Source of the DNA: Bacilli bacterium
Lineage (GTDB): Bacteria; Bacillota_I; Bacilli_A; RF39; UBA660
Assembly: GCA_017436345.1 (NCBI GenBank)
Contig: JAFSDH010000004.1
Coordinates: forward strand, 2,661-66,660
Direction: 5' to 3'
DNA: 64,000 nt
Shown here: in pieces, positions 10,605 through 36,259 of the stretch
How positions within the stretch are numbered: the stretch's first letter is position 1
Layout: every line of letters begins with the position of its first letter
Position numbers and translations under genes: made by a program
The notes under the pieces: model-generated
What the model was told of the DNA's origin: nothing
The model's input: only the letters and a program-made list of their open reading frames with translations
Databases searched by the model: none

Positions 10605-10633
10605 TTGAAAAAAAATATGAAAAAAATTATAAT
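10605..10633 (+). promoter_or_regulatory. sigma-A type promoter at the left edge of the Tad/T4SS locus
   Basis: TTGAAA (10605-10610), a 17-nt spacer, then TATAAT (10628-10633). It lies 30 nt upstream of the GGAGTGGAG RBS and the ATG at 10664. Confidence 0.6.
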
Positions 10634-10663: not shown

Positions 10664-11374
10664 ATGAAGAAAAAAAGAATATGTCTATTGCTTATAATAT
10701 TATCAATCTTTTTATTTAAGATTGATGTAAATGCAGCAGGAACTTGTACGAAAGATGAAAAACAAAGTTTAGAGAAAATTGCATATGAAATAGATGTAAA
10801 TTATGAGGTCGTTTCAATTGAAAATATACACTCAGATGATTTTAATTATGCATATAATCTTGTTATAAATAATTTTTCAGAAGACTTTTATTTGCTAGTA
10901 GGGAATTATGAAAAAAGGTTAGATTATAATGTTAATGTAAATACATATGAAAATGTATTTATAGGGGGTGGCTATAACGGGAAAATAAAAGTATATAGTA
11001 GCTCGAATACATCTTGTCCAGATACTTTGATACGTTCGTTTGAGATATGGGTTCCCTATTATAATAAATATAGTGAGCGTGCAGAATGTGAAGAATATAA
11101 AGAATATGATATTTGTAAGGTTGCAACTGATACAACCGGTATTAGTGAAGAAGAATTTATAAAAAAAATAGATAAAATTAAAGAGAGTCAAGTAACTGTT
11201 GAGCCAATTGTTGAAGAAGAAAAAAAATGGTATGAAGATATTTATGATTTTTATACTGAGCATAAAGTTTTAATTTTATCTTCAGTAGTAATTATAATCA
11301 TATTAATAGCTACCATAACTATTGTTGTTAAAAAGAAACAAAAAAATAAAATTAAAGTAGATTTAGAGGTGTAA
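10664..11374 (+). CDS. cassette 1, gene A: secreted, C-terminally membrane-anchored 4-Cys protein (unknown family)
   Basis: Signal peptide ...FLFKIDVNA/AG. Ectodomain with SSNTSC and ECEEYKEYDIC patterns, an acidic linker, a C-terminal TM (VLILSSVVIIIILIATITIVV) and a KKKQK tail. Paralog of 15670..16404, which has INTEC and ECKGIEEFSLC. Confidence 0.6.
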   Translation: MKKKRICLLLIILSIFLFKIDVNAAGTCTKDEKQSLEKIAYEIDVNYEVVSIENIHSDDFNYAYNLVINNFSEDFYLLVGNYEKRLDYNVNVNTYENVFIGGGYNGKIKVYSSSNTSCPDTLIRSFEIWVPYYNKYSERAECEEYKEYDICKVATDTTGISEEEFIKKIDKIKESQVTVEPIVEEEKKWYEDIYDFYTEHKVLILSSVVIIIILIATITIVVKKKQKNKIKVDLEV

Positions 11375-11375
11375 T

Positions 11376-14300
11376 ATGAAAAAAAATAAGTTATTAATAT
11401 TAATAATTTGTCTAATAAGTTTTTTACCTTGTTTAACAAATGCTAGTGAGTGTAGTAGCACACCTAGTTATTCTGGGGTAGCAGAATCTGGATATGCAGC
11501 TGCTGGAGGGAAAACTAATTGTAATCCTCCTTGTTATACTAATAGATTCGCAGGATTGAGATTTAGAATTTATTCCTATAAAGATGGAAATTTAAAACCA
11601 CTTGGTAATGGTGTAGATATATGGAGTAAAAAAGCAACTGAAGTTATTACATCATCTGGAAGATATTCATCACCAAATACTGATTTTTTAAACAAAAGAA
11701 TAAATAATAGTTGCACTAATAACGGAAAATTTACAAAATGGAGTACTAGTTTTTCGTTAAACGCTAGTCAATATAAGCAAATGAAAGTATTTTATGATTC
11801 AGAACTAGGATCAGCAAATGCCAAATTAGGACAATACGATTTTGGTGGTTTTATATTAAAATATAATGATAAAGGTGAACCTAATGATGGTTGGTTATAC
11901 GACAATTTATATTCAAAAATAATGAATAGGTCAACCGCTAATGACGAGTTTATCAAAAACTTATGGGGGATAGAAGCGAATTCATTAGTTGCACAAGGTG
12001 AAGATATATATATAGGTGTAGAAATATTACAACGAGTTGATACTAGCTCATATGGTAATTCTAATTATGGAATTAGTACATATAAACTATATTATGGTAG
12101 TCCTTCAGATTTTGCTCCTATTTATGGTACAGCGGAAGCATATGTATCTTTATATAATAGTACAAGTAAAACACCTGTTGGTAAATTAGCAACAACAGGA
12201 AATTTAAAAGGGACATATAAAATTAAAATTAAAAATCCAATGAATACAAACGCTGGATGTTGGGGAAATAGTTGTAGTACATATAATCAATATGCTGGTA
12301 CTGTTTTTGGTTTTTTAGGTGGGAATACAGGATTGTATAATGCTACATACGCTGCAGCTTGTAATAATACTATTGGTATGGCAGTGTTTCATTTTGCTGA
12401 GTGTGAAAAATGTGTTAACAGCTGTGATAATGAATGTGGAAAATATTCAGATGGAACGACTGAGAGAAGAGCTTGTGCTATGAAATATTGTAAAGAGAAC
12501 CCTGTAAAAGGTGAGTCGTATGATTCTTGTATTGCAGCATGTTCTCCAGGTCCATCAAAAGATGAAGGATGTGATCCGAGTGAAAAATGCGATCCAAATA
12601 AATTAGTCACAAATTATAAAGGTGATAAAGTATGTGATGAAAAGGATGATATGAATCAAAAATGTGATGTAGACACAACTATAACAAGTAAAGTTTGTTA
12701 CGATGACAATACTAATATTTCAATACCAGGTGAAGTTATTAGTGATTCAACGGCTAAAGATTTGGAAATTATATATTATAGAATTAATTGTGATGAGAAA
12801 TTGAAGGTGTTTAATGGGTCAAATGGTACTAAGGTATTACAATTTGAAAACAGAGTAGCAGATTTACATATTGGTCTTTCTACAACTTTTGAAAAAAACT
12901 GTACTTTACAATTTAAAGAAAGATACATGGAGTCTGGAACATACAAGTATAAATGGGAAAATGCAAAAGGTAAAGATAAAGACACATCAGCATTAATAAT
13001 GGAAGATATAAAAACTTATGAAGATTATCGTGATAAAACTAAAGATGTAGATTTATACAATGAATATGATAAAATAATAAAAAAATTAAATAATACTTAT
13101 AATAGAGCATATAATCGATTGTCATATGTTACAGAATTAGACACAACAAAAGTAGATGCAACCACAAAAGTGGAAATAGTAAATGAAAGTTTAACTGACT
13201 CTAAAACAATAAACATAAAACTTAAACCAATTTTTTGTGAAATGGGTGATTCAAAAGTTGGATCTGCTTCTATGACTAATTTAAAATGTGTTTTAAAAGA
13301 AGATAAGATTTATTTGCAAGAAGATAACTCTGTTATTTGTGGTAATGACGGTGCCGCAGATATTAAAATAAATAATACCACAGGCGGAACTGGGAATTAT
13401 AAATATACGGTATATTATGGAACTGAATCTACTTGGAATTCTTCATATGGTGATCTTGATGACGTGTATGTAAGTGATGCTACAGAGAGTGGCAGAGAAA
13501 AATGTTTAACAGCAGTGGAAATATTTAATGGATATTGTACTGAGATAGAAGATGTATATAGGTTCAAGCCGTTTACTGCTGGAATTAATACATCAACAAC
13601 TATAACTAAAACAACTGGTAAATATGATATTTACATATCTGGTTATGGTTCTTGTGGACAAATAAAGTTTGGCTGTTGTGCTGACTATAAAATAGAAGAC
13701 GGTAATAAATGTAATAAATGTATGGATTATGATCCAACATCTCAAGAATATTTAGATTGTTATAAAGCATATTGTAGCTGTGATGTTATTTGTGGAGCTA
13801 ATGTTGCATGTCGTGCTAAATATTGTCCTTTAGAATGTGAAGGATGTGAAGTTGGATATACTGATATAACTTCAACTGATGACTCTTGTGACACGTGTGT
13901 TGAAAAATGTAATACTGATTTCTCACCAGCTGGTGGTGGTGGCACTAATAAAAATTTATCAAGTAATATTGTTTGTCGATATGATTGTTGCAATGCATCA
14001 TGTGATATAGGAAATGATACATGTCGTTTTGATTGTTGTATTACAAAGTGTAATAGTTTACAAGAAAAAAATTTACTTGAATATATGGGATATAAAACAA
14101 CAGCTTCTATGACAGCGTTAGAAGCATGTTATCAAGATTGTAGATGTCCTAATGGTAATTGCGGTAATGATTATTACTATAGAACTATAAATCAAGAAAA
14201 ACCATTCCCAGATAGAACTCCAGGAGCTAACTGGTATAATAAAGTAGAACATATTACTGAAAGTGAAAACGTTAATGGGAAATATTATGATCCAACAAAT

Positions 14301-14546
14301 GGGAAAAATTCAGGATATGAATATAAAATTTCTTTAAGCAGTGAAGATATTCAAAAAATTAAAAATGATAAAAAAATAAATACAACGTATACTCAAAAAA
14401 TGAGTTCAGAAGATAAAGCAAATTTGGATGATCGTGGTGTATATTGTAGTTATCTATTACATGATTATTTAAATAATGAATTAAACATTCGAATTGAAGA
14501 AGGTTCGGATGGAAAATATGGAAGTGGGTGTGCTAATATAGGATGA
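11376..14546 (+). CDS. cassette 1, gene B: 1056-aa secreted cysteine-rich protein (unknown family; putative surface/pilus-associated adhesin)
   Basis: Signal peptide MKKNKLLILIICLISFLPCLTNA/SE. About 55-60 Cys by manual count, clustered in CxxC-rich blocks (ECEKCVNSCDNEC...; NKCNKC...CSCDVIC...CEGCE...CRYDCCNASC...CRFDCCITKC). C-terminal motif YYYRTINQEKPFPDR. Starts 1 nt after the upstream stop. Paralog of 16388..19408. Confidence 0.65.
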   Translation: MKKNKLLILIICLISFLPCLTNASECSSTPSYSGVAESGYAAAGGKTNCNPPCYTNRFAGLRFRIYSYKDGNLKPLGNGVDIWSKKATEVITSSGRYSSPNTDFLNKRINNSCTNNGKFTKWSTSFSLNASQYKQMKVFYDSELGSANAKLGQYDFGGFILKYNDKGEPNDGWLYDNLYSKIMNRSTANDEFIKNLWGIEANSLVAQGEDIYIGVEILQRVDTSSYGNSNYGISTYKLYYGSPSDFAPIYGTAEAYVSLYNSTSKTPVGKLATTGNLKGTYKIKIKNPMNTNAGCWGNSCSTYNQYAGTVFGFLGGNTGLYNATYAAACNNTIGMAVFHFAECEKCVNSCDNECGKYSDGTTERRACAMKYCKENPVKGESYDSCIAACSPGPSKDEGCDPSEKCDPNKLVTNYKGDKVCDEKDDMNQKCDVDTTITSKVCYDDNTNISIPGEVISDSTAKDLEIIYYRINCDEKLKVFNGSNGTKVLQFENRVADLHIGLSTTFEKNCTLQFKERYMESGTYKYKWENAKGKDKDTSALIMEDIKTYEDYRDKTKDVDLYNEYDKIIKKLNNTYNRAYNRLSYVTELDTTKVDATTKVEIVNESLTDSKTINIKLKPIFCEMGDSKVGSASMTNLKCVLKEDKIYLQEDNSVICGNDGAADIKINNTTGGTGNYKYTVYYGTESTWNSSYGDLDDVYVSDATESGREKCLTAVEIFNGYCTEIEDVYRFKPFTAGINTSTTITKTTGKYDIYISGYGSCGQIKFGCCADYKIEDGNKCNKCMDYDPTSQEYLDCYKAYCSCDVICGANVACRAKYCPLECEGCEVGYTDITSTDDSCDTCVEKCNTDFSPAGGGGTNKNLSSNIVCRYDCCNASCDIGNDTCRFDCCITKCNSLQEKNLLEYMGYKTTASMTALEACYQDCRCPNGNCGNDYYYRTINQEKPFPDRTPGANWYNKVEHITESENVNGKYYDPTNGKNSGYEYKISLSSEDIQKIKNDKKINTTYTQKMSSEDKANLDDRGVYCSYLLHDYLNNELNIRIEEGSDGKYGSGCANIG

Positions 14547-15085
14547 ATTCGTCAATGTGGGGAGTATTGTTTTTAGCCTTAGGTATAACAGGAATTGTTT
14601 TAATTAATATTTTTGGAGAAATAACAATACAAAATGAACAAAACTATTATTCTTTAAAAGAAGTTACAAAAGCAGCAATGGAAGATGCTGTTGATGAATA
14701 TGCACTAGAAAACGGTATAGGATATGATGGGGTAACTCAAACTGCATACCCTGAATATATGCACTGTGAAGAAGGTGTACCTGGTACTGTAAGAATTATC
14801 AAAGAAAGATTTGTTGAATTATTTATTTTGAAATTTTCTGAAAGTGTAAATATAAATAATGATTATGAAATAGTCTTTAATGATATAGATGAGTGTCCAC
14901 CAAAAGTTACTGTTACGGTAACATCATCTCAAAACTTTAGTATGATACAAAGAGTATTTGGATTAGGTGGCTCAAGAGAAGTTGCTGATGCCGATATTGA
15001 AAATATTATTCATGGTGTTTTAGAAACAGAAAAAACGCAAGATGATGGTATTGCTGAAGATAGAGCAGAACGAGCAGGTGCATAA
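14543..15085 (+). CDS. cassette 1, gene C: small N-terminally anchored TadE/pseudopilin-like protein
   Basis: ATGA start/stop overlap with the upstream gene. Begins MNSSMWG followed by a hydrophobic helix (VLFLALGITGIVLINIFG), and has conserved MHC...IDECPPKVTVT. Roughly half its residues are identical to 19418..19918 by eye. Confidence 0.5.
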   Translation: MNSSMWGVLFLALGITGIVLINIFGEITIQNEQNYYSLKEVTKAAMEDAVDEYALENGIGYDGVTQTAYPEYMHCEEGVPGTVRIIKERFVELFILKFSESVNINNDYEIVFNDIDECPPKVTVTVTSSQNFSMIQRVFGLGGSREVADADIENIIHGVLETEKTQDDGIAEDRAERAGA

Positions 15086-15112
15086 AAAAAGAAGCGATTT
15101 AACGCTTCTTTT
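15086..15112. terminator. bidirectional rho-independent terminator between convergent genes
   Basis: Stem AGAAGCG (15090-15096) pairs with CGCTTCT (15103-15109). It is flanked by an A-run upstream and a T-run downstream, exactly between the stop codons at 15085 (+) and 15113 (-). Confidence 0.75.
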
Positions 15113-15556
15113 TTATTTTTCAATTAATCCATTTGCTTTTAATTTAGAAACTACAGTATCTGCATTTTGATTTCCTACAATTCTTTTTAAAGTACTTGTT
15201 TCGCGTCCATTTTTAAAGAATAAAACAACCGGTGTACCATCAATTCCGTAGTCATCCAAAAACTCACTTCGATCTTTTTCTGTCATATTTGTAATGTTTA
15301 TACTAAATGCTGTTAAATTATATTCGTTTAACACAGATTCAAGTGTAGGAGTAAAATTGCTACAATTTGAGCAACCGGTTTGAACAACTTCAAGAATAAA
15401 ATTATCTTTGTTTGAAAGTTTTTCATTAAAAACTTTATATTCAATTTCAGTTATTGGACTATTTTCGTTTTGATTAGCTTTATTATTTTGGTTACATCCA
15501 ACAATAAAACAAGCAAATATAAGAATTAAAGAAAAAATTTTAATTACTTTTTTCAT
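15113..15556 (-). CDS. thioredoxin-like thiol-disulfide oxidoreductase lipoprotein (CxxC = CSNC)
   Basis: Likely start is MKKVIKIFSLILIFACFIVGC (ATG at 15556-15554, GAGGTGG RBS), with lipobox IVG/C. Active-site-like GCSNCSNF and a cis-Pro strand DGTPVVLFFKNG are typical of the thioredoxin fold. The ORF-track start at 15583 is probably too far upstream. Confidence 0.75.
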   Translation of the reverse strand: MKKVIKIFSLILIFACFIVGCNQNNKANQNENSPITEIEYKVFNEKLSNKDNFILEVVQTGCSNCSNFTPTLESVLNEYNLTAFSINITNMTEKDRSEFLDDYGIDGTPVVLFFKNGRETSTLKRIVGNQNADTVVSKLKANGLIEK

Positions 15557-15669
15557 TATCCACCTCAAAAAATATACTAGCATAAATAAAAAAATAACAC
15601 AATAAAAGATTGTTTTTTACAATAAATTATCGTATACTATAGATAGTATAAAATAGAGGGTGTTGTCGA

Positions 15670-16404
15670 ATGTGTTTTAACAGTAAGAAAAATAAAATTG
15701 CTTTACTTTTAATCATTGTAACATTTTTATTTTTTAATAGAGTTGATGCCGCAAGTTGTACTAACACAATAAAGAGGGAACTTGTAAAAGAAGCGGAAAA
15801 AGTAGAGATTGTTCCTTATTTAAATGAGGAATATAATCCGATGCATGTATATAAATATAATGTTTATATAACAAATTTATCAGAAAATATATTTATTATA
15901 GACTCTATAGGAAATAGATACGAATATGATGAATTCCAAGATGAGAATTCAGTTTTTGGCATGTATGCACCAGGAAGTAAAATAACTTTTACGATTTATG
16001 CCTCTATAAATACTGAGTGTAATAATGCTAAATTAACTAGTTTAACTATAAATTTTGATTATTATAATGATTATTCAACACGTGAAGAATGTAAAGGAAT
16101 TGAAGAGTTTTCTTTGTGTAAAAGAAATTATAATGGAAAAATAGAATCTGATGAATGGTTTAAACAAAAGGTTGAAGAATATAAAAATGGAAATCATGAT
16201 GTTGAAATAGAAGAAGAATCAGAAGAAGAAACTAATAAAATAAAAGATATTATTTTTCATCCTATTACAATAACTATTTTTTCTCTTTTACTTATAGGAA
16301 TAATTGTATTAATTATATATAAATTAAGAAAGAATAAAGGAAAAGTTAAAATAAAATACAAAGATATAAAAGAACGAGGTGAAGAATATGAAGAAAATAA
16401 ATAA
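15670..16404 (+). CDS. cassette 2, gene A: secreted, C-terminally membrane-anchored 4-Cys protein (paralog of 10664..11374)
   Basis: Signal peptide ...FFNRVDA/AS. It has the same Cys spacing pattern as its paralog, an acidic EIEEESEEE linker, a C-terminal TM (ITITIFSLLLIGIIVLIIY) and a basic tail. Confidence 0.6.
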   Translation: MCFNSKKNKIALLLIIVTFLFFNRVDAASCTNTIKRELVKEAEKVEIVPYLNEEYNPMHVYKYNVYITNLSENIFIIDSIGNRYEYDEFQDENSVFGMYAPGSKITFTIYASINTECNNAKLTSLTINFDYYNDYSTREECKGIEEFSLCKRNYNGKIESDEWFKQKVEEYKNGNHDVEIEEESEEETNKIKDIIFHPITITIFSLLLIGIIVLIIYKLRKNKGKVKIKYKDIKERGEEYEENK

Positions 16405-19400
16405 AATATTTTTTGCCATAGCAATAGCTTTATTATCGAACCTAGCTCTAACGGTAGATGCGAAAGTTAACGTTACACCAGGTGGAGGAGGAACTCCACC
16501 AGCTAGTGGTTGTAGTGAATGTGCATGGGTATACTCAAGTGATGGACTAGGAGTAAGATTAAGCTTATATAAGTATGATGAAAAAAATCTAGTATTTAAA
16601 ACTTCAATAGATTTAGTAAATCAACCTTCTAATTATCCAGCAAAGGCAAATACTACAAAGGATAAATTTGGAAGATATAGTTATACTAAACTTAATAAGA
16701 CAATAGATTTTGCCTATTATACAGTTGGAGCGAAAGATATAAATAACTATGGATTTTCAACTATAAATGAAGATAGTGATTCTTGGTCAACAAAATTTGC
16801 TAAAGAAGTTCAAAACTATTTTGGAGAAACAGAAAGCGAAACGATTTCTGGTATTAAAAAAATGTTTGGAGTTACAGTTCCTGTTAATGAACTATCACAA
16901 TATTATATTGTTGCCGAACCAACAGCTTTCTTCTATAGCCGTGTAGGACAATTTTATACTTATGCAACTGGTTATGAATATATGGTTGTTTTAAATGATA
17001 TTGATAAATATACTGGAAATTACTCTTGGAATTTATGGGAATCTCAAGGAAGACATACATTCCTTGGATATATGTTTAATGGTATGTATAACAAAACTGA
17101 TTCAAGTATAGAAACAGAAATAAAAAAAGAATGGGGATTTACAGATGGAAGATATGATTTCTATAACTTCTTATCTCGTAGTAATAATAAATCATTAGTT
17201 AAAACTACATCTAGCTTAATAAGTGAAAAGTCTAAGATTAGAGATAACAATGCATATGCTAAGTCAAACTATCCTTATGGTGTTATGGTATTCTGGATTG
17301 GAAAAAATAGTACTGTAATTGGTGGATGTGAAAATGTATGTACTGACAAAAATGGAAATAAGTTAACAGGTGATGCATTACTTAAATGCGCTGAAAACTA
17401 TTGTTCAAGTTTAGATAATGTAAAAAATAAAGAAGATAAGGCTGATTGTATCACAAATAGTTGTAAATATACTTTTACAAGATTAACTTGTGATAATACA
17501 ACAAGTAAAAATGGTAATGATACAGTATGTACAGCAAGTACAAATTCCAATAAAAAAACTTGTGAAATTAAAAATACACAAAATTATTCATATAAAGTAG
17601 AATGTCAAAATTTTTCAACAGTTGAGTTCCCTGAAACTTTACCAAGTACTTTTGTTGCTGGTCAAGGTTTTGAGTATCGTGTAAGACTATATGGAAACAA
17701 AACATGTACTGTTAAATTGGATGAAGCTTTATGGAAATATAATTATGCATCAAGTTATACAGATACTGAAAGACAAACCTATATTAATGCGTTAAATAGT
17801 TATAATAGCTTAAACTTTTCAGATTATTATTTTGATTCATCAACTGCTAATATAAATGTTAATATTGATAAGAGTAAAGATGGAAAAAAATCAACTGATA
17901 AAGTTCAGTTAAAAGCAGAAGAAAGATATGAACATGGTGATAAAAAAGTAACAACGACATATACAAATCAAAACATTGTTAGTTATCATAAAAATAGCAA
18001 TGTTACAAAATCAGTAAAATTATATACAACCGAGTCAAGTAATGGTACTTACTATGAACTTCCAGGTGTTTGTATATCTGAAAAAGATAATGAAACCCCT
18101 AAAGAAGGATCTGTATGTGAAAAAGGTTTAGGTCCATATAATAAATATTACACTAATATCTATGCAGACGAAGGTAATAACAATATTGAAACGACAGTTA
18201 CATATAATCCAGCGGGACTAGATAATGTTGTAAATAAGTGTGATTATACAATAACTGATGAACCTTTAAGTTGTTATATTGATGTTCAAACAGCATCTAA
18301 TCAAAAAGGTGAAACATTAAAAAATAACGAAGATATTAATTTTATATTAACTGTTATAACTCAAGACAGAACTAGATCAATAAGAAAGAATATTGGTACA
18401 ACACCATTAACAATGGATGATCAATTTAATAATAAAAATGTTTATACTATTTTGAAAAACACAATAACAACAAATAAAGATATAACAGTATATGGAACTG
18501 TTACAGATGGTGAACATATAGCCATTTGTGAAAAAAGAGTCAATATAAATCCACAACAATGCGAATGGACAGTGACTGAAAATAATAATGAAGTAACAGT
18601 TTCATTAAAGCAAATAAAAAATACAAATGCTAAATATTATATTAGAACATCTACAAGTAATACTTGGATGGAAACAAGAACAAGAACTTTCAATAAAACT
18701 AATAAATTAGAAATTGAAGGAAAAATAGTTTCAGGAAGCGATACATATACATGTTATTATTCCGCTAATTTATCTGGTCAAACATGTACAGAATTATATG
18801 AACCAGCACAGTACGATAAAATAAAAAATTATTGTGATACATCATGGCAAAATGATACAGCAAATTATAGTAGTGCAAATGATTGTTTTACTGGATGTAC
18901 TGGAACAAATAAATGTAAAATTCTACATGCATGTACAGAAGTAGAAAAAATAAGAAATTATTGTAAAACTAATTTTGCGGATGATGGATATGAAAATGTT
19001 GGAAGTTGTATAAATGATTGTTCATGTGGTGGGGGACTAGACTATTACTATAGAACAATATCAGTTGATGATCCATTCCCAAAACGTGATGCTCATTACA
19101 ATTGGTTAGGATATGAAGAATATATAACTAATGATAAAGATGATTTAACATCATCGTATACTGATAGTCCTGAATATGAAATAGTTCTTGATAAAAATCG
19201 TATTGATGCTATCAAATCAGATACAAAAAGATATAATTCCAAAACTGGTAATGATGCTTATGGTGATTATATTAGATATGACAAAGAAGATGAAGAAACA
19301 AGCGATTTTAATGAACCATATAAAAGTAAATTTATTCATTTCGATGATACTGAAAATGGTGGATTTAAATCATATTTCACTTATATCGAAGGTGTAAAAA

Positions 19401-19408
19401 CAAGTTAG
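16388..19408 (+). CDS. cassette 2, gene B: ~1006-aa secreted cysteine-rich protein (paralog of 11376..14546)
   Basis: ATG at 16388 follows a GAGGTGA RBS; the ORF track uses the GTG at 16379. Signal peptide MKKINKIFFAIAIALLSNLALTVDA/K and about 30 Cys. Blocks shared with the paralog: GVRLSLYKY vs GLRFRIYSY; GGCENVC...LKCAENYC vs ECEKC...ACAMKYC; YYYRTISVDDPFPKR vs YYYRTINQEKPFPDR. Confidence 0.65.
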   Translation: MKKINKIFFAIAIALLSNLALTVDAKVNVTPGGGGTPPASGCSECAWVYSSDGLGVRLSLYKYDEKNLVFKTSIDLVNQPSNYPAKANTTKDKFGRYSYTKLNKTIDFAYYTVGAKDINNYGFSTINEDSDSWSTKFAKEVQNYFGETESETISGIKKMFGVTVPVNELSQYYIVAEPTAFFYSRVGQFYTYATGYEYMVVLNDIDKYTGNYSWNLWESQGRHTFLGYMFNGMYNKTDSSIETEIKKEWGFTDGRYDFYNFLSRSNNKSLVKTTSSLISEKSKIRDNNAYAKSNYPYGVMVFWIGKNSTVIGGCENVCTDKNGNKLTGDALLKCAENYCSSLDNVKNKEDKADCITNSCKYTFTRLTCDNTTSKNGNDTVCTASTNSNKKTCEIKNTQNYSYKVECQNFSTVEFPETLPSTFVAGQGFEYRVRLYGNKTCTVKLDEALWKYNYASSYTDTERQTYINALNSYNSLNFSDYYFDSSTANINVNIDKSKDGKKSTDKVQLKAEERYEHGDKKVTTTYTNQNIVSYHKNSNVTKSVKLYTTESSNGTYYELPGVCISEKDNETPKEGSVCEKGLGPYNKYYTNIYADEGNNNIETTVTYNPAGLDNVVNKCDYTITDEPLSCYIDVQTASNQKGETLKNNEDINFILTVITQDRTRSIRKNIGTTPLTMDDQFNNKNVYTILKNTITTNKDITVYGTVTDGEHIAICEKRVNINPQQCEWTVTENNNEVTVSLKQIKNTNAKYYIRTSTSNTWMETRTRTFNKTNKLEIEGKIVSGSDTYTCYYSANLSGQTCTELYEPAQYDKIKNYCDTSWQNDTANYSSANDCFTGCTGTNKCKILHACTEVEKIRNYCKTNFADDGYENVGSCINDCSCGGGLDYYYRTISVDDPFPKRDAHYNWLGYEEYITNDKDDLTSSYTDSPEYEIVLDKNRIDAIKSDTKRYNSKTGNDAYGDYIRYDKEDEETSDFNEPYKSKFIHFDDTENGGFKSYFTYIEGVKTS

Positions 19409-19417
19409 GAGGTAAAA

Positions 19418-19918
19418 ATGAATTCATCAACATGGGGATATTTATTCCTAGTATTAGGTTTATTAGGTATTTTACTAATTAATTTGTTTGGTAATATAAC
19501 TATAAATAATGAACAAGATTATTATTTATTAAAAGAAGTAACAAAATCAGCTATGCTTGATTCTGTTGATATAATGGCATTTCGTGAAGGGATTGGTTAT
19601 GATGGAATAACTTCAACATCTGATCCTGAATCAATGCATTGTATTACTGGTAAAACAGGAGAAATTCGAATTGTCAAAGAAAGATTTGTAGAAAGTTTTA
19701 TTAGACATTTCGCTGAAAATGTTGATCGAAACAAAAAGTATACAATAAGTTTCAAAGATATTGATGAATGTCCTCCTAAAGTAACAGTTACAATTAAAAC
19801 AGAAGAATCATTAAGTTGGTTTGCAAAGTTACTTGGTAAAACAGATAAAATGGATTATGAAACAGATACAGCCGATGTAGTGAATATCTTAAATGCCATA
19901 TTAGAAAGTGAAGTTTAG
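19418..19918 (+). CDS. cassette 2, gene C: small N-terminally anchored TadE/pseudopilin-like protein (paralog of 14543..15085)
   Basis: Begins MNSSTWG followed by a hydrophobic helix. Shares NEQ.YY.LKEVTK.AM, GIGYDG, MHC, IRI.KERFVE and IDECPPKVTVT with its paralog. Confidence 0.5.
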   Translation: MNSSTWGYLFLVLGLLGILLINLFGNITINNEQDYYLLKEVTKSAMLDSVDIMAFREGIGYDGITSTSDPESMHCITGKTGEIRIVKERFVESFIRHFAENVDRNKKYTISFKDIDECPPKVTVTIKTEESLSWFAKLLGKTDKMDYETDTADVVNILNAILESEV

Positions 19919-19933: not shown

Positions 19934-20809
19934 ATGAATAGTACTTCAATAAAAATTAAAAAGTTTTTAAGTAACAGAAATACAGTTACAATTATTTGTG
20001 CATTTATAGGTATAGTGGTTTTATATGTTGGATATACAATGAAAGTTCAATCTGCAATTGAACCAATCGAAGTACCACATGCTAAAGTTACAATTCAACC
20101 ACGTACCAAAATAAAAGATGATATGATTGGATATATCGAAGTAGCAAGTGCAGCTGTTGAGGAAATGGGAGATAATATTATTATTTGTAATAAAGAAACA
20201 TGTCCTAAAAAATTAGTAGGAAGATATACAGCTGTAAATACATTAATTCCTCAAGGAAGCTTATTCTATGAATCTGCAGTAGTAGATAAGGATGAATTAC
20301 CTGATGCTGCTGTATACGAAGTAAAAGATGGGGAAACATTATATAACTTAAGTGTTAATATGAGTACAACATATGTAAATTCAATTATTCCTGGTGGATA
20401 TATTGATATTTATATAAGAACAATTGATGAGCAAGGTATGGTTAGAGTAGGTAAATTTATTGAAAATATAAAGATTTTAGCTGTAAAAACATCAAGTGGT
20501 TTAAATGTATTTGAAAATAGTGAAGAACAAAGAGTACCTGCATATGTATTATTTGCCTTACCAAATGAGCAATATTTATATCTATCAATGGCAGCCAAAT
20601 TAGGTCTTGAAATTATTCCAGTACCTATCAATGTAGATTTGGATAATAGTCCAGAAACATCTGAAATGACAAGTAAACAATTATATGAATATATTCAAGG
20701 TTTAGCTGATGAATTTGCTCAAGGAGGATTTACTCTTGAAGAAGAAGATCCAACTAATCCATTACCACCAACTGATCCAACAGTAAATAATGGAACAAAA
20801 GGTGAATAA
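19934..20809 (+). CDS. CpaB/RcpC-like pilus assembly protein (tentative)
   Basis: N-terminal TM (VTIICAFIGIVVLYVG). This is followed by a SAF-like segment (VPHAKVTIQPRTKIKDDMIGYIEV) and a Pro-rich C-terminal tail. It sits immediately upstream of the Tad ATPase. Confidence 0.4.
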   Translation: MNSTSIKIKKFLSNRNTVTIICAFIGIVVLYVGYTMKVQSAIEPIEVPHAKVTIQPRTKIKDDMIGYIEVASAAVEEMGDNIIICNKETCPKKLVGRYTAVNTLIPQGSLFYESAVVDKDELPDAAVYEVKDGETLYNLSVNMSTTYVNSIIPGGYIDIYIRTIDEQGMVRVGKFIENIKILAVKTSSGLNVFENSEEQRVPAYVLFALPNEQYLYLSMAAKLGLEIIPVPINVDLDNSPETSEMTSKQLYEYIQGLADEFAQGGFTLEEEDPTNPLPPTDPTVNNGTKGE

Positions 20810-20810: not shown

Positions 20811-22796
20811 ATGGATGAAACAATGAATTTAAATGGGATGGGAATAGGTGTAACAGAAACTAAAGTAACTGAAGTTCCTGTTGCTGCACCTGTTGAAGCA
20901 TCAAATGAAAATCAGGATGTCACAACAAACATTCCTGATAATTCATCTGCTTCTCCTGTTCAAGTAGAAAGTAATGAAACAAACATTGAAACAAATGAAA
21001 ATAAGTCACTAGAAGCCAACAATGAAGTTGACTTCGGTGATTTAGATATGATTAAAGAACTACGCGCTGAAGAAGCAGAAAGTAGAAAAAAAGAGAGTAT
21101 TTTCTCTAATATGGACTTTGGTTCTTTAAAAAAATATTTAGATGATGATGATGTAACTGATATATCATATAGTAATGGTGGACAACTTTGGCTAAAAACT
21201 TTAAGTAAAGGTGTTTACCGTGTGCAACAAGATGATATAAATGATGCCTTAATTGAAAAAATAGCTTTCCAATGTTCTAACGTTATGGGAAAAACATTCA
21301 ATATGGCTCATCCATTTTTGGACTCTGAATCAGCTGAACTTCGTATGAATTTCATCCATGATTCAATTGCTAGAAATGGTATTGCTGTTGTATTTCGTAA
21401 AACACCAGCAAAAATTCGTCTTGAAAAAGAAAAATTAATGAAAGAAAACTATGTATCATTAAGTATCCATGATTTTCTAATAAAAGCTGTTCAAGGGCAC
21501 TGTAATATAATCATGTGTGGGGAAACTGGTTCAGGTAAAACAGAATTCTTAAAATATTTAGCTAGTCACACATTTGAAAATGAAAAAATCGTTACAGTTG
21601 AAGATACCTTAGAACTTCACTTGGATAGAATTTATCCACATCGTGATATAGTTGCGATGAAAACTAATAATGTTGCGTCTTATTCAGATGTATTAGTTAC
21701 ATGTATGAGACAAAACCCAATTTGGATATTGTTATCAGAAGTTCGTAGTGCAGAAGCAGTTACTGCTGTTCGTAACTCAATATCTTCTGGGCACTTTATC
21801 CTTTCAACAATCCATGCTGATAAAGCAGCTAATATTCCTTATCGTTTATATAGTTTGCTTGAGTCAAATATTGATGTTGAACAATTCTTAAATACAATTT
21901 ATCGTTATATCCAATTAGGTGTATACTTAAGAGGTAGATTTGATGCTAAACAAGGTAGATTTGTTCGTGAAATAGGAGAAGTAACAGAGTTTTATGTTAA
22001 TGATAATAATGAATGTATTTCTAATACTATTTATCAAAAAACAATTAAAGGTGATGTTAAATATAAACCTATAAGTAATCATTTACTTGAATATCTAGAA
22101 GGGCAAGGAATTGATATGTCATCAATTCGTGATGCTAATGGGGACTTAGAAAAAGCTCAATCATATAGTGATGAAGAAACAAAAAATGAATCTGTAGCAG
22201 AAGAAAAAAAAGAAGAAACTTCTATAGAAATTAAACCTATTACTGAAGAAGTAAAGGTAGATCAATCAATAAACAATGTTACAGAAGAAAAAGATATAAA
22301 ACCTATTGCACCAGCAGTAGAAGAAAAGGTTGCTCCAATAACAGTAGAACAACCAGTAAATAGTGTTACAGCGGAAGTAAAACCAATTACTCCAGTAACC
22401 GAAGAAAAAGTTGTACCATTAACGAATGTACAACCTATAAATAACTTGGAAAATGTAGAAGTAAAACCTATTGCACCAGCAGTAGAAGAAAAGGTTGTTC
22501 CAATAACAACAGAACAACCAGTAAATAGTGTTATGGCGGAAGTAAAACCAATTACTCCAGTAACCGAAGAAAAAGTTATTCCAACAACAATAGAACAACC
22601 AACCCCATTGACTAATATTACACCTGTTGTTGATCCAACTCAAAAAGTAGAAACACCTACTAGTCCAAGTCAAGAAGCAAGTGGAAATGCTGTTAATGAA
22701 GTAAAAACAATTACTCCTATTACTCCAAATAGTGATAGTGATGGAACTTCACAACCAGTAAATTTCACACCAATTAATGTTACAAATATTCAATAA
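20811..22796 (+). CDS. CpaF/TadA-type (VirB11 superfamily, T2SSE) secretion ATPase with acidic N-terminal and repeat-rich C-terminal extensions
   Basis: Walker A GETGSGKT, VTVEDTLEL, Walker B-like IWILLSEVRSAEA and His-box LSTIHA. The ATG at 20811 has an AAAGGTGA RBS and avoids overlapping the upstream gene; the ORF track starts at 20790. TadB/TadC-like genes lie directly downstream. Confidence 0.85.
   Translation: MDETMNLNGMGIGVTETKVTEVPVAAPVEASNENQDVTTNIPDNSSASPVQVESNETNIETNENKSLEANNEVDFGDLDMIKELRAEEAESRKKESIFSNMDFGSLKKYLDDDDVTDISYSNGGQLWLKTLSKGVYRVQQDDINDALIEKIAFQCSNVMGKTFNMAHPFLDSESAELRMNFIHDSIARNGIAVVFRKTPAKIRLEKEKLMKENYVSLSIHDFLIKAVQGHCNIIMCGETGSGKTEFLKYLASHTFENEKIVTVEDTLELHLDRIYPHRDIVAMKTNNVASYSDVLVTCMRQNPIWILLSEVRSAEAVTAVRNSISSGHFILSTIHADKAANIPYRLYSLLESNIDVEQFLNTIYRYIQLGVYLRGRFDAKQGRFVREIGEVTEFYVNDNNECISNTIYQKTIKGDVKYKPISNHLLEYLEGQGIDMSSIRDANGDLEKAQSYSDEETKNESVAEEKKEETSIEIKPITEEVKVDQSINNVTEEKDIKPIAPAVEEKVAPITVEQPVNSVTAEVKPITPVTEEKVVPLTNVQPINNLENVEVKPIAPAVEEKVVPITTEQPVNSVMAEVKPITPVTEEKVIPTTIEQPTPLTNITPVVDPTQKVETPTSPSQEASGNAVNEVKTITPITPNSDSDGTSQPVNFTPINVTNIQ
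22293..22628 (+). repeat. in-frame tandem repeat inside the ATPase gene (about four copies of a 27-28-aa Pro/Glu/Val module)
   Basis: The repeated module is (D/E)(I/V)KPI(A/T)P(A/V)(V/T)EEKV(A/V/I)P(I/L/T)T..EQP.N. At the DNA level, 22299-22411 and 22464-22576 are near-identical (165-nt period). Confidence 0.85.
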
Positions 22797-22816: not shown

Positions 22817-23710
22817 ATGGAATTAGTAATTTTGCTATTCTTATTTGTATTTGCAACTCTATATTATTTAAAGAAAGGTGACTCTTTATATAAATTTATT
22901 ATTGATGGAGCCAATGTTGTATATGATAAATATGCACCTTTCTCATATAAAACAATAAGAGAAAAAGTAAAAGATTTAGGCCAAAACTATACAGTTAAAG
23001 ATTATACTATTCAATTATGTTTATTTGGTGGAGGAGCTTTCATCGTTTCATATTTGTATTTTTATAGCATAATAGTATCTTTAGTTTACGTAGTAGCCGC
23101 GATATCTTTGATTCCATATCTACAATACTTAAGATGTAAACGTATATATAGTGAATTTATTTTTGAACAAGTTCAAGTATATACAACAAATACAATCATG
23201 GAATTCCAAACAACTCAATCTTTTGTAAAAGCTTTAGAAGGTGTATATGGATCTGGTGTATTACAAGATCCAGTCCTAGCTGATGTAAAAATTATGATTG
23301 ATATGGCTTATCAAAATGGGGTAATTGATGAATCAATTGAATATATGAATGAAAGATATGATTTCTATATGACAAGAAACATGCATCAATTATTCTTACA
23401 AATTACTAAAGAAGGTTCAAGGGATTCAAATGATGTACTTGAAAATATGTTACAAGATATCGATACTCTTGTAGAAGGAGTATACCGCGATAGAATGGAC
23501 CGTGCTAACTTCCATAGACAATTCTTAACATATGGTTTTATGTTATATCTATTGATTATGTTAGTACAGTATTTATTACAAGTAGAAACATATCGAGAGT
23601 TACTTAAAGATAATTTAGTAGTAGTTATATTACATATCATAGTTATATCAAATAGTTATTTTCTTGTATCAGGAGAAAAATATTATAACGAGAATGTAGG
23701 TGCTGAATAA
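22817..23710 (+). CDS. TadB-like inner-membrane platform protein (T2SSF-domain-like)
   Basis: 297 aa with N-terminal, central and C-terminal TM segments. The cytoplasmic helical domain (...SFVKALEGVYGSGVLQDPVLADVKIMIDMAYQNGVIDESIEYM...) is in the style of T2SSF/TadB. Position next to the ATPase supports the call. Confidence 0.55.
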   Translation: MELVILLFLFVFATLYYLKKGDSLYKFIIDGANVVYDKYAPFSYKTIREKVKDLGQNYTVKDYTIQLCLFGGGAFIVSYLYFYSIIVSLVYVVAAISLIPYLQYLRCKRIYSEFIFEQVQVYTTNTIMEFQTTQSFVKALEGVYGSGVLQDPVLADVKIMIDMAYQNGVIDESIEYMNERYDFYMTRNMHQLFLQITKEGSRDSNDVLENMLQDIDTLVEGVYRDRMDRANFHRQFLTYGFMLYLLIMLVQYLLQVETYRELLKDNLVVVILHIIVISNSYFLVSGEKYYNENVGAE

Positions 23711-24489
23711 TGGTTATATTAATAATTGCAGGTTTAGTAGTATTTGTACTTGTTTATACAAAAACAGTTGATGGAAATCAATTCTTACAAGAAAATGATA
23801 TGTATGTTCAAATGCTTAAAGAAAAAGATTGGGATTTCTATGTATCAGCAAAATATGGAGATCGAGTAAATGCTGATGAACTATTTAATAAAAGAATAAG
23901 AGATACATTTTGGATATCAGCTATTATCATATTAATAATGATGACTAATTTTTCATTCATAAATCTAGTATTTATGATGGTTATGATTTTTGTGATATTT
24001 AAAATGCCTTATCAAAATTTAAGATCATATTATAAAAGATATATGTCTAAAATTGACCAAATGCTACCATACTATTTAAAAGGATTAGAAATCCTATGCC
24101 AAAACTATACAGTGCCGGTAGCACTTGCAAGATCAATTGAAGATGCACCTGAAATATTTAAACCAGGTTTACGTCAAATGGTTGAAAAAATTAATAATGG
24201 TGATTCATCAATTCAACCATATATGGATTTTGCAAATCAATATCCTGTTAGAGATTCAATGCGTATGATGCGTTTATTATATCGTCTTGGATTAGGAGCT
24301 CAAGAAAATAAATATCAACAATTAATTATGTTCTCTAAATCAGTTTCATCATTACAAAATAAAGCTCGTGAAGATAAATATAAAAAGAGATTACAAGTAA
24401 TGGAACAAAAAACAATGATCATGTTGGTTGTAACTGGTGGCGGAACAATGGTTGTATTATTATTTGCAATGATGTTCTTAATGGGATAA
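23710..24489 (+). CDS. TadC-like inner-membrane platform protein (T2SSF-domain-like)
   Basis: TAATG stop/start overlap with the upstream gene. The central domain LPYYLKGLEILCQNYTVPVALARSIEDAPEIFKPGLRQMVEKINNGDSSIQPYMDFANQY matches the T2SSF pattern. A C-terminal TM pair is present. Confidence 0.6.
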   Translation: MVILIIAGLVVFVLVYTKTVDGNQFLQENDMYVQMLKEKDWDFYVSAKYGDRVNADELFNKRIRDTFWISAIIILIMMTNFSFINLVFMMVMIFVIFKMPYQNLRSYYKRYMSKIDQMLPYYLKGLEILCQNYTVPVALARSIEDAPEIFKPGLRQMVEKINNGDSSIQPYMDFANQYPVRDSMRMMRLLYRLGLGAQENKYQQLIMFSKSVSSLQNKAREDKYKKRLQVMEQKTMIMLVVTGGGTMVVLLFAMMFLMG

Positions 24490-24555: not shown

Positions 24556-24747
24556 ATGAAAGAGGCAAGTGGAGAATTAAATATGACAATTGTAACAGTA
24601 GTTGCAATCGCTTTAATCTTAGCATTCGCTACAATGTTCGTACCAGATATTCTTGAAGGAATCCAAGAAAAATGGAACATTGCAGAACAAGATGCACAAG
24701 AAGGTTTAGATAATAAAGACAATACTTACCAAGACCAACATGGTTAG
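24556..24747 (+). CDS. small Flp/pilin-like protein (putative major pilin)
   Basis: 63 aa: MKEASG / ELNMTIVTVVAIALILAFATMFV, then a short polar tail. The size, the single N-terminal hydrophobic helix after a Gly, the dedicated promoter and the position inside the Tad-like operon support the call. It lacks the canonical Flp G/xxxxEY motif. Confidence 0.45.
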   Translation: MKEASGELNMTIVTVVAIALILAFATMFVPDILEGIQEKWNIAEQDAQEGLDNKDNTYQDQHG

Positions 24748-24776
24748 GATAAAGAAGAATAAGAGGTGTTTAAATT

Positions 24777-25214
24777 ATGCGTGAGTCAATAGGTGGAACT
24801 TTATTAATGTATTTAGTTATAATATTCTTGTTCATATATATTGTATTTATGGCAGTTGTTATTAACTATGGTCGCGTATTTAGAGCAAAGAATAGCTTAA
24901 TTTCATATATTGAAGCAGAAGAAGGATTTAAAGGTGCTGATTCTGTAAATGATTTTATTACTAAAGCTAATAGTTTAAATTATAGAGGACCATTATACCT
25001 ATGTTATACTCAAGGTAATGGCGACACAAAATATTTTTCAATTAGATTAGCTATACAATTCGATATACCATTAACAAATGGATCTGCTAATGTATGGATC
25101 ACAGGAGAAACAAGTGGTATTAGAAATGTTACAAACAATACTGGAAATAATAGTATTGAAGAATGTAATGCAACAGGTAATAAATTTACAAATGCTTCAA
25201 AAATAAGAGGGTAA
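24777..25214 (+). CDS. TadE-like pseudopilin/membrane protein
   Basis: MRESIGG followed by a hydrophobic helix, then YGRVFRAKNSLISYIE. This matches the TadE N-terminal pattern of a TM followed by a conserved helix. Confidence 0.45.
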   Translation: MRESIGGTLLMYLVIIFLFIYIVFMAVVINYGRVFRAKNSLISYIEAEEGFKGADSVNDFITKANSLNYRGPLYLCYTQGNGDTKYFSIRLAIQFDIPLTNGSANVWITGETSGIRNVTNNTGNNSIEECNATGNKFTNASKIRG

Positions 25215-25226
25215 AGGAGGTTCTAT

Positions 25227-26356: not shown

Positions 26357-26662
26357 ATGTATTTTTTAGATGTAGATTGTTCAGATATAGATGCAATCAT
26401 AAGTTTTATTAAAGGAGTACTAAAACTAATTCAAATTTTAATACCAATAGCTTTAATTATTATGGGAAGTGTTGATTTAGGTAAAGCTGTACTATCAAGT
26501 GATGATAAAGAAATTAAACAAGCAACAAGTAAATTAATTAAAAGAGCAATTGCTGCTGTTGTTATATTCTTCATCCCATTTATTGTAAATTTAGTAATGG
26601 GACTTGTATCTGACTCTGGTCCAGAAGGTTCTGATACAACAACATGGGCAGATTGTTGGTAG
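26357..26662 (+). CDS. VirB2/TrbC-like small two-TM protein, leaderless paralog
   Basis: 101 aa. Two TM helices flank a polar loop (GSVDLGKAVLSSDDKEIKQATSKLIKRAIAAVVIFFIPFIV). Collinear with 28005..28406 (CSSDFVSVVTSQDDNAMKKAGSRIIKRFIAAAAFFFVPVII), but it has no signal peptide. Confidence 0.45.
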   Translation: MYFLDVDCSDIDAIISFIKGVLKLIQILIPIALIIMGSVDLGKAVLSSDDKEIKQATSKLIKRAIAAVVIFFIPFIVNLVMGLVSDSGPEGSDTTTWADCW

Positions 26663-26670
26663 GATAATAA

Positions 26671-26697
26671 AAAAGAATGTAAACATTCTTTTTTTTA
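26671..26697 (+). terminator. rho-independent terminator
   Basis: Stem AGAATG (26674-26679), loop TAAA, stem CATTCT (26684-26689), then a T-run to 26696. Confidence 0.7.
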
Positions 26698-26726
26698 TTG
26701 TTATTTTATTTTTAGTATATTATAAT
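26698..26726 (+). promoter_or_regulatory. sigma-A type promoter
   Basis: TTGTTA (26698-26703), a 17-nt spacer, then TATAAT (26721-26726). Upstream of the GAGGTG RBS and the ATG at 26744. Confidence 0.5.
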
Positions 26727-26743
26727 GATAATGAGGTGTTAAT

Positions 26744-27913: not shown

Positions 27914-27929
27914 AGTTTATTAATAAAAT

Positions 27930-27963: not shown

Positions 27964-28004
27964 GATATAATTAGTATGATATATTGGTCTTCATGGAGGA
28001 AAAT

Positions 28005-28406: not shown

Positions 28407-28424
28407 AAGGAGAAGTGATTAATT

Positions 28425-36255: not shown

Positions 36256-36259
36256 AATG

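Follow-up and report, generated by a model that had tools for sequence, protein, structure and literature searches.

Paralogous cassettes for a putative variable-head adhesin beside a Tad-like filament and type IV secretion locus in an uncultured Bacilli bacterium

A 64,000-nucleotide stretch of contig JAFSDH010000004.1 (assembly GCA_017436345.1), hereafter the window, carries two paralogous three-gene cassettes upstream of genes for a Tad-like filament module and a type IV secretion system (T4SS). Each cassette encodes a small membrane protein (A), a secreted cysteine-rich protein of about 1000 amino acids (B) and a DUF5411 protein with an N-terminal hydrophobic helix (C), numbered 1 or 2 by cassette, and a thioredoxin lipoprotein gene lies between the two (Table 1). 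From sequence comparisons, we give about even chances to the reading that B is an adhesin with a variable head, whose constant C-terminal domain docks on C and which is coupled to the Tad-like filament/T4SS apparatus. Within one species, the head and stalk of B1 were found replaced together with A1, and the C-terminal part of B1 was nearly invariant.

The window was compared with two conspecific genomes, L001 (GCA_965311905.1) and L021 (a Logan assembly). Over the flanks, the entire cassette 2, the thioredoxin gene and the beginning of the filament operon, DNA identity was 98-100%, and it dropped to 34-70% between approximately 10700 and 13780 in all three pairwise comparisons. The left edge of this variable block lies in the sequence coding for the A1 signal peptide, and the right edge at about residue 800 of B1, where the C-terminal cysteine-rich block starts. 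Alleles of the A1 protein were 40-47% identical; along B1, identity was 19-31% in the head (residues 24-330), 47-51% in the middle (331-800) and 96.5-98.8% in the C-terminal part (801-1056). C1 was 98% identical between the window and L001. Because only this block diverges among the three genomes, A and the head and stalk of B are swapped between strains as one unit. No silent copies of other A1 or B1 alleles were found in the window by tblastn. A first-pass annotation, made from the sequence alone, had suggested that the cassettes provide alternative binding specificities plugged into one machine, and this suggestion is strengthened by a within-species allele replacement limited to A and to the head and stalk of B. 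Variation of a milder kind was seen at a second spot, the C-terminus of the CpaB-like protein (20388-20780; 82-86% DNA identity between the window and L021), and the CpaB-like and ATPase proteins of the window and L001 were 92-93% identical.

All six open reading frames of the mirrored cassettes were found where the first-pass annotation had placed them, as were all the motifs it had listed as shared within the A, B and C pairs. By BLASTP, A1 and A2 share 32% identity over 183 amino acids (E 2e-17), B1 and B2 share 38% over the C-terminal ~84 amino acids (E 5e-10) with a weak N-terminal match (E 0.003), and C1 and C2 share 56% over 165 amino acids (E 8e-55). These identities support the view that C is conserved and that A and B are diverged. 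Comparison of a B2 profile (21 sequences) with a B1 profile (5 sequences) by hhalign gave a probability of 99.9% (E 2.9e-35). The whole of the combined profile (positions 1-1007) aligned with each B found in 75 related loci, and many cysteines of B1 and B2 occupy equivalent columns; the homology of B1 and B2 therefore extends over the entire proteins.

The gene junctions were also as described. B1 starts at ATG 11376, one nucleotide beyond the A1 stop at 11374 and behind the ribosome-binding site GAGGTG, and B1 and C1 overlap by ATGA (14543-14546). The 17-nt overlap of A2 and B2 holds if B2 starts at ATG 16388, 8 nt past GAGGTG, which is the most likely start; the GTG at 16379 listed by the open reading frame tool lies inside the ribosome-binding site, so ATG 16388 is preferred. 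A GAGGTG-type ribosome-binding site precedes each downstream cassette gene, and the gaps of 9, 15 and 1 nt leading to C2, the CpaB-like gene and the ATPase gene (ATG 20811) were correct. The promoter assigned to cassette 1 is the best promoter-like site in the region (11/12, a consensus match only). A terminator-like hairpin was confirmed behind C1, and since an A-run and a T-run flank its stem it would act in both directions. Toward the CpaB-like gene, cassette 2 has no terminator-like site within 19408-20200, in agreement with the earlier description.

Both B proteins carry a cleavable signal peptide and are rich in cysteine, with 59 residues in B1 and 30 in B2. Neither protein matched anything in Pfam, NCBIfam, PHROGs or the PDB sequences, and a Pfam search of 31 diverse relatives returned no domain and no enzymatic or toxin family. 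A word-indexed search of 5.8 billion proteins found 25 relatives of B2 and 5 of B1, and an exhaustive profile search of 1.84 billion representatives found 357 clusters at E <= 1e-3, 155 of them at E <= 1e-30; among the matches listed, most relatives were 900-1700 amino acids long. B is thus a rare superfamily. Pfam detected no SLH, CWB2 or LPXTG anchor in the window proteins or the 31 diverse members, and the B sequences themselves contain neither a wall nor a membrane anchor.

The AlphaFold model of B2 (predicted local distance difference test, pLDDT, 76) comprises five parts: an alpha/beta head (residues ~40-310), a cysteine-rich helical segment, a run of beta-sandwiches (387-800), a second cysteine-rich helical segment (803-881) and a C-terminal domain. 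Foldseek searches of PDB and BFVD with this model returned only tandem immunoglobulin (Ig)/FN3 adhesion molecules, with fragments of GhpA ranking first and sixth. As modelled, B resembles an adhesin stalk with a head. The C-terminal domain, which in B1 carries the motif YYYRTI..PFP.R..NW..IT..EY.I.L..YCS..LH..GSGC, is the sole element common to all B relatives, including proteins of 509-576 amino acids. In the B2 model it is the least confident part (pLDDT < 50); such low confidence in the isolated, best conserved domain is consistent with its folding on a partner protein.

Two types of B can be distinguished by their tails. Type 2 proteins end in a strand-like YFTYIEGxKT (YFTYIEGVKTS in B2), and their tail (19319-19408 in B2) reads YKS..IH and lacks a terminal cysteine. 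The type 1 tail (14444-14546 in B1) has one cysteine in YCS..LH and another in the terminal GSGC. Across ~50 sequences, the two type 1 tail cysteines co-occur or are jointly lost, which suggests that they form a disulfide stapling the tail. Dockerin_1 scored above the Pfam cut-off in two B relatives: a full-length B with a dockerin type I module at residues 687-739 (L019:7062-10001), and a 509-residue protein that has only the C-terminal domain of B beside its dockerin type I module (L009:1146-2675). These modules hint at binding to cohesin-bearing partners.

Protein C had been described as TadE-like. That assignment was not supported: C1 and C2 belong to DUF5411 (PF17424), with scores of 113.5 bits (E 9e-33) and 134.4 bits (E 3e-39) against a gathering score of 30 bits, and neither matched PF07811 at E <= 1. 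We found 287 homologues of C2, and PF17424 was present in all 120 that were listed. The residues W6, G14, G17 and N22 are invariant and lie inside the membrane helix; position 7, just ahead of the hydrophobic stretch, is G in 39 of 47 sequences (M in 5, A in 2 and S in 1), and the C of locus L050 has T where most have G. The structure model of C, listed for C2 (pLDDT 68.7), consists of an N-terminal helix (3-48) whose first half is hydrophobic, a loop, a second helix (87-101) and three strands. We considered whether the cysteine loop of C (GIGYDG..MHC, DECPP) is tied to an upstream full-length B, and rejected this, as DECPP occurs in 48 of 52 sequences with B and in 4 of 5 without. The sole mention of DUF5411 in the literature is as a predicted member of a CpaF/PilC operon in Clostridia, beside an internalin-like protein (PMC9523054).

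Protein A has an ectodomain of ~150 amino acids with four conserved cysteines and the motif PYYN.YS.R.EC.G.E.F.LC in an alignment of 16 sequences, followed by an acidic linker, one transmembrane helix and a conserved basic tail, K.K(I/V)K(I/V)(D/N)L. The first-pass annotation had recognised neither the A nor the B family, and indeed neither matches any Pfam or NCBIfam family; PHROG and PDB sequence searches of A also found nothing. The gene between the cassettes, which had been overlooked, encodes a thioredoxin lipoprotein on the minus strand (15113-15583), whose orthologues score for PF20207 (PedC-like). It adjoins the cassettes in nearly all relatives and belongs to the cassette unit. Its product is a probable disulfide catalyst for A, B and C. 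A second PedC-like/DUF6568 gene of the thioredoxin fold is located 5 kb upstream of the cassettes (5119-5685), and the order BipA, PedC-like, SpoU of the window is repeated in L019.

The cassettes were surveyed in 75 loci, collected by exact-protein look-ups and pattern scans of genome and metagenome collections and annotated with A, B and C profiles and the other window proteins. The cassette site lies between a diacylglycerol-kinase-like gene and the CpaB-like gene, and the gene orders include tABC, ABCtABC, ABCtBC and ABABCt, where t is the minus-strand thioredoxin gene. Between one and three cassettes are present, three being found in L004. Type 1 cassettes lie upstream of the thioredoxin gene and converge on it; type 2 cassettes lie between that gene and cpaB. 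The two types are old paralogs, of which lineages retain either or both, and the types of B and C are simply inherited along with that of the cassette. The linkage to Tad-like genes seen in the window was confirmed, as 36 of ~43 informative distinct loci adjoin the CpaB/ATPase operon; 19 loci were too short to reveal their context and were left out of the ~43. In L050 (5032-12946), a metagenomic relative, A-B-C is followed by a canonical PilC with two T2SSF domains and, two genes past the cassette, an A24 prepilin peptidase; these take the place of the CpaB/ATPase operon. L017 keeps the filament module and lacks the VirB6, VirB4 and VirD4 genes after it.

The order and fusion of genes also vary. 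Natural A-B fusions occur in P0013 (~20 contigs), P0015 and P0154, and in these the transmembrane helix and basic tail of A are followed directly by the signal peptide of B, so that both ectodomains lie outside. The order B (576 amino acids)-A-C is found in L067-71, and extra copies of A are found in the L012 group. In L009 and L010, a protein of 509-527 amino acids with only the C-terminal domain of B precedes a cysteine-rich protein of 931-1015 amino acids with a DUF5411 N-terminus. These DUF5411-headed proteins (L009:2677-5472, 931 amino acids; L010:10001-13048, 1015 amino acids) gave weak PKD/Big_2-like matches. Both contigs were binned as 'Muribaculaceae', which given their gene content is probably a binning error. 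An origin of the cassettes from a mobile element or prophage was rejected: the flanking housekeeping genes are conserved in distant relatives, including those whose B2 is only 39-58% identical, and neither a viral contig nor, in 38691-40421, a relaxase was found. A, B and C had no PHROG match, and no relative of C was found in IMG/VR.

The genes that follow cassette 2 had been read as a Tad operon. The ATPase of the FlaI/CpaF/VirB11 clade and the Tad-like character of the module stand; because the row continues into T4SS genes, the neighbour is not a plain Tad operon but a Tad-like filament module with a Gram-positive-type T4SS attached to it. The ATPase scores 92 bits for PF00437, above the cut-off, and its nearest solved structures are FlaI, CpaF and VirB11; every score against the NCBIfam equivalogs fell under its cut-off. 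The CpaB-like protein scored 22.9 bits against a cut-off of 28.8 and 23.3 against one of 71. The two proteins in the TadB/TadC position matched no Pfam family and no TadB or TadC in a PDB sequence search, and are 85% and 82-83% identical to their orthologues in L007 and L002. No family was matched by the 63-amino-acid pilin-like protein, nor the TadE family by the 145-amino-acid protein (PF07811, E <= 1). The T4SS module continues on the same strand, with matches to T4SS-DNA_transf (196 bits), the AAA_10 and TraG P-loop families and Peptidase_M23 (84 bits); its TrbL_4 and TcpE matches score under their cut-offs. The M23 peptidase has 20 cysteines. No relaxase family was detected in 38691-40421, ahead of a tRNA synthetase gene at 40453. 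The tail of the ATPase gene (22297-22603) contains ~3.4 copies of an 81-nt repeat coding for 27 amino acids rich in Pro, Val, Glu and Lys, and the ATPase ranges from 400 to 748 amino acids in the surveyed loci.

We propose that each cassette would encode a disulfide-rich, Sec-exported surface recognition module serving the adjacent Tad-like filament/T4SS. The N-terminal head and Ig-like stalk of B would set the binding specificity, and its cysteine-rich constant C-terminal domain would be the docking element. C would act as a constant adaptor on a membrane helix, which takes up the C-terminal domain of B and links B to the machine. According to two studies of 2026, PilC/PilY1 is fixed to the minor pilin PilK by its last ~10-12 residues, which are added as a beta-strand, and the same strand can be supplied in cis in the PilK homologues of the type II secretion system and in TadG/CpaL of Tad pili (PMC13533445; bioRxiv 10.64898/2026.09.18.752573). 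Coupling of B to C by addition of a C-terminal beta-strand is likely akin to this. Such docking fits the C-terminal domain shared by all B, the strand-like type 2 tail, the poor stand-alone model of the domain and the existence of separate and fused forms; separate B and C as opposed to the DUF5411-fused proteins of L009 and L010 would parallel PilK plus PilY1 as opposed to TadG/CpaL (PMC13533445).

A would be a type I membrane protein with an ectodomain matched to a particular B head. The A and B genes overlap or abut, are swapped together and are naturally fused; because A changes along with the head of B, it is most simply seen as a matched chaperone, anchor or co-receptor. Caution is advised by the occurrence of A without B and by the conservation of its tail. 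The thioredoxin lipoprotein would make or shuffle disulfides extracellularly. Cassette 1 would be a self-contained transcription unit, exchanged between strains through recombination in its conserved ends, and cassette 2 would be co-transcribed with the machine. The first-pass annotation had assigned the giant proteins a role like that of PilY1 or TadG, as accessory or tip components of the filament; the role fits the architecture, and a location at the tip would be a further, conjectural step.

Several observations weigh against an adhesin docked on C at a filament. The Ig-like Foldseek matches of B2 are generic, with TM-scores of ~0.1 and no specific relative, and no binding domain was identified in B apart from the dockerin in two relatives. 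C lacks a prepilin-peptidase site and a Glu at +5, and a Foldseek search of PDB with its model, itself of moderate confidence, gave nothing below E 0.3 (PilO ranked seventh, not significant). A prepilin peptidase (A24) was not found among nearly all the larger open reading frames of the window. Some loci carry A-C or A-A-C without B (L011, L031, L035 and L072), so B is not obligatory to the set of A, C and machine. Finally, about four or five lineages carry a cassette with no Tad-like gene within 5-10 kb; these are one abundant species (L012-14/16/18/28/29) and L040, L052 and L060.

These stand-alone cassettes, together with the cassette's own promoter and terminator in cassette 1, are what would be expected if B were a surface coat or adhesin independent of any filament, held by the transmembrane helix of A and/or C as a strain-variable outer layer or as an adhesin for host or mucus; adjacency to the Tad-like genes would then reflect shared regulation or history. 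We regard this as unlikely, although it is the best of the alternatives. S-layer cassettes have a conserved anchoring end and a hypervariable exposed end that is swapped between strains, a pattern that B1 shares, and the S-layer protein EA1 was among the weak Foldseek matches of B2 (rank 48). Typical S-layer proteins are, however, poor in cysteine, unlike the very cysteine-rich B, and the anchors sought (SLH, CWB2 and LPXTG) were not detected. The adjacency is also hard to set aside when most informative loci adjoin the filament operon and cassette 2 enters that operon without a terminator. DUF5411 is moreover found with CpaF/PilC in distant Clostridia (PMC9523054) and with PilC/PilD in L050.

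It is quite improbable that B is cargo, pushed folded and disulfide-bonded through the wall by the Tad-like module acting as a piston in the manner of type II secretion, with its C-terminal domain as the signal and A and C as loading factors. This option, already raised in the first-pass annotation, draws on the resemblance of a conserved C-terminal domain on variable proteins of 500-1700 amino acids to a sorting domain, on the lack of an anchor in B and on the place of the machine ATPase in the FlaI/CpaF/VirB11 clade. The natural A-B fusions nevertheless hold B beside a membrane protein, and the C-fused variants are membrane-anchored by construction. Replacement of head and stalk at the strain level suits a cell-bound recognition device better than a released enzyme, and none of the 31 diverse members has an enzymatic or toxin domain.

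We put little credence in a third alternative, that A and B form a partner-recognition or exclusion pair of the T4SS. The B head would bind a matching A ectodomain or a polymorphic receptor on another cell, and so set mating or targeting or block redundant transfer, like TraG/Eex or TraN with its outer-membrane protein. The joint replacement of A and the B head speaks for such a pair but is equally expected of a chaperone and its client; the extra copies of A and the loci with A and no B also agree with it, as does the continuation of the operon into VirB4, VirB6 and VirD4; L017, however, retains cassettes and filament module with no T4SS genes behind them, and DNA transfer lacks the support of a relaxase, none having been detected near the T4SS. 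A precedent in F-type T4SS is the cysteine-rich TraN with its dedicated thioredoxin-like TrbB (PMC11315126).

A related and speculative idea, again improbable, is that the swappable A ectodomain and B head and stalk make up a strain-specific partner-recognition code of a chromosomal, relaxase-less Tad-filament/T4SS, by which small-genome gut Bacilli would attach to other cells and exchange material with them, with A as the cognate receptor or exclusion factor. If that were true, the dockerin variants would hint that some targets are cohesin-bearing, fibre-degrading bacteria, and the locus would stand, on the Gram-positive side, beside the machinery for attachment and transfer that has been proposed for epibiotic Patescibacteria, with interchangeable specificities built in. 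Relaxase-less T4SS in Patescibacteria offer a parallel (PMC12102498).

The variable region is swapped along with a small neighbouring membrane protein, as a polymorphic toxin (B) with its immunity protein (A) might be, and this reading is very improbable: B carries a Sec export signal and many Ig-like domains, the 31 diverse members and the window proteins yielded no toxin domain, and known polymorphic toxin loci, with a variable C-terminal toxin domain and an immunity gene immediately downstream, show the reverse of the variable N-terminal 800 amino acids, constant C-terminus and upstream small gene seen here.

Among known systems, a variable-head adhesin docked on C would come closest to PilC/PilY1 with minor pilins of the PilK family. 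That protein is likewise a Sec-exported non-pilin of ~1000 amino acids with a variable N-terminal and a conserved C-terminal part, and Neisseria has two paralogous copies per genome (PilC1 and PilC2), as with B1 and B2. Its extreme C-terminus docks on a small helix-bearing partner (PMC13533445), as is proposed here for B and C. B is nonetheless related to it neither in sequence nor in fold: the model contains no beta-propeller, the Pfam family Neisseria_PilC was not matched by B1, B2 or the 31 relatives, and B is modelled as Ig-like sandwiches and cysteine-rich helices, with a DUF5411 partner that has no prepilin site. The cassettes also add the membrane protein A and a dedicated thioredoxin, and the host is of the Gram-positive type.

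Tad pili likewise combine small proteins bearing an N-terminal helix (TadE/TadF) and a large accessory protein (TadG/CpaL), encoded with an operon of CpaB and CpaF-type ATPase and platform genes, and the fibre requires these components at its start or tip. In contrast, C, the 145-amino-acid protein and B match no TadE or Tad family, the window yielded no TadV peptidase, the cassette precedes cpaB and does not follow tadC, and its copy number ranges from 1 to 3. TadG has an N-terminal Tad/TadE-like helix and a von Willebrand A domain, both absent from B, which begins with a cleavable Sec signal peptide and matches no Pfam domain. Because TadE and PilY1 domains and a prepilin site are absent, the cassette is not a member of the PilC/PilY1 or TadE/F/G families.

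Specificity for the partner is set by a variable region in TraN of F-like T4SS. TraN is also a cysteine-rich, T4SS-associated surface protein with a thioredoxin-fold disulfide isomerase, TrbB, encoded in the same locus (PMC11315126), but it is an outer-membrane protein of Gram-negative bacteria, shows no sequence relation to B and does not sit on a type IV filament. The R64 thin pilus is a type IV pilus serving a conjugative T4SS, and the alternative adhesin ends produced by its PilV shufflon alter recipient specificity (PMC12102498). There, a single cell varies a genuine minor pilin by site-specific inversion of its C-terminal segments; here, variation arises through paralogous cassettes and allele replacement between strains.

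Two other gene clusters resemble the present locus in gene content. That of Roseburia, Ruminococcus and Eubacterium (Miller et al. 2022, PMC9523054), a predicted secretion or pilus operon, places DUF5411 beside a PilC-like platform protein, an ATPase of the CpaF type and a surface protein that has an internalin-like cell-invasion domain. Its DUF5411 proteins have 112-127 amino acids, its large partner is internalin-like and lies outside the B superfamily, its description includes neither an A family nor a thioredoxin or T4SS, and the operon is a prediction without assigned function. The Tad-like cluster of TANB77 (PMC11680825), also from a reduced-genome uncultured gut Firmicute, contains CpaB, TadZ/CpaE, TadA, TadB/C and several unannotatable pilin-like genes, but TANB77 belongs to the class Clostridia and no A/B/C cassette, thioredoxin or T4SS was described for it.

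An adhesin mounted on a type IV filament is a familiar arrangement. New are the A and B families, the A partner, the dedicated thioredoxin, the one to three interchangeable cassettes, the allele replacement within a species and the fusion of a filament module with a T4SS at a core chromosomal site. The locus offers A, B and DUF5411, all without assigned function, a concrete role in one apparatus, and the docking model, if true, would extend the principle of PilC/PilY1, an adhesin on a helix-anchored partner, to unrelated proteins of Gram-positive-type Tad-like systems. Allele replacement, with a variable head and partner protein but a constant docking end and machine, singles out the cell-surface part on which diversifying pressure is strongest. 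Since the host bacteria are widespread in gut and rumen metagenomes and still uncultured, B could serve as a natural strain marker and as a clue to the targets of attachment, whether host, fibre or other bacteria. The conserved link of a type IV filament module with a relaxase-less T4SS at a core chromosomal position is worthy of note in itself.

The features of the locus are collected in Table 1. The window has a G+C content of 27% and almost every gene is on the plus strand. Core genes in it include those for BipA, a SpoU methylase, tRNAs, an Asn/Lys-type tRNA synthetase, FtsA, FtsZ, FtsK and DnaE, and the cassette locus is chromosomal. The host is an uncultured member of the Bacilli, probably with a small genome. 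According to their record names, the relatives come from rabbit, the Hadza human gut and other gut or rumen samples, as metagenome-assembled genomes and metagenome contigs; the largest contig with a related cassette measures 1.27 Mb.

Table 1. Features of the cassette locus and the adjoining filament and secretion genes in the window
Feature	Position	Strand	Basis
Promoter-like site of cassette 1 (TTGAAA-17-TATAAT)	10605..10633	+	Sigma-70-type consensus match only, 11/12, best within 10400-20200
A1: signal peptide, 4-Cys ectodomain, acidic linker, transmembrane helix, basic tail	10664..11374	+	16-sequence family alignment
Hypervariable block: mature A1 and about the first 800 amino acids of B1	10700..13780	+	Comparison of three conspecific genomes
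B1: 1056 amino acids, Sec-exported, 59 Cys, type 1 of the B superfamily	11376..14546	+	Pairwise and profile comparison
Constant C-terminal part of B1: Cys-rich block and conserved C-terminal domain	13776..14546	+	Strain and family comparison
C1: DUF5411, N-terminal hydrophobic helix and small alpha/beta domain, conserved Cys pair	14543..15085	+	PF17424, E 9e-33
Bidirectional terminator-like hairpin between the convergent C1 and thioredoxin genes	15085..15114		12-bp stem
PedC-like thioredoxin lipoprotein, lipobox FIVGC, active site CSNC	15113..15583	-	PF00085, E 1e-10
A2: paralog of A1	15670..16404	+	Pairwise and family alignment
B2: ~1006 amino acids, Sec-exported, 30 Cys, type 2	16388..19408	+	Sequence, profile, AlphaFold model
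C2: DUF5411, paralog of C1	19418..19918	+	PF17424, E 3e-39
CpaB/RcpC-like protein, opening gene of the filament operon	19934..20809	+	PF16976, E 8e-5; TIGR03177, E 3e-5; both under curated cut-offs
Secretion ATPase of the FlaI/CpaF/VirB11 clade, repeat-rich C-terminal tail	20811..22796	+	PF00437, E 3e-26
Two polytopic membrane proteins in the TadB/TadC position	22817..24489	+	Position and conservation only
63-amino-acid pilin-like protein, 145-amino-acid protein with N-terminal helix, 351-amino-acid protein	24556..26282	+	Conserved in the operon; no family match
Gram-positive-type T4SS module: two T4SS_pilin, TrbL/VirB6-like, TcpE/VirB3-like, VirB4-like, M23 peptidase, VirD4	26357..38616	+	Pfam

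Two further gene groups were observed elsewhere in the window. Past a tRNA-Cys gene, a small open reading frame is followed by an ATP-binding cassette (ABC) exporter with a C39 peptidase, of the type used for bacteriocin export (44363-47667), and a similar ABC exporter lies downstream of the cassettes in L006. A gene for a HerA/DUF87-type ATPase is located among core genes and is followed by two small open reading frames (56874-58646).

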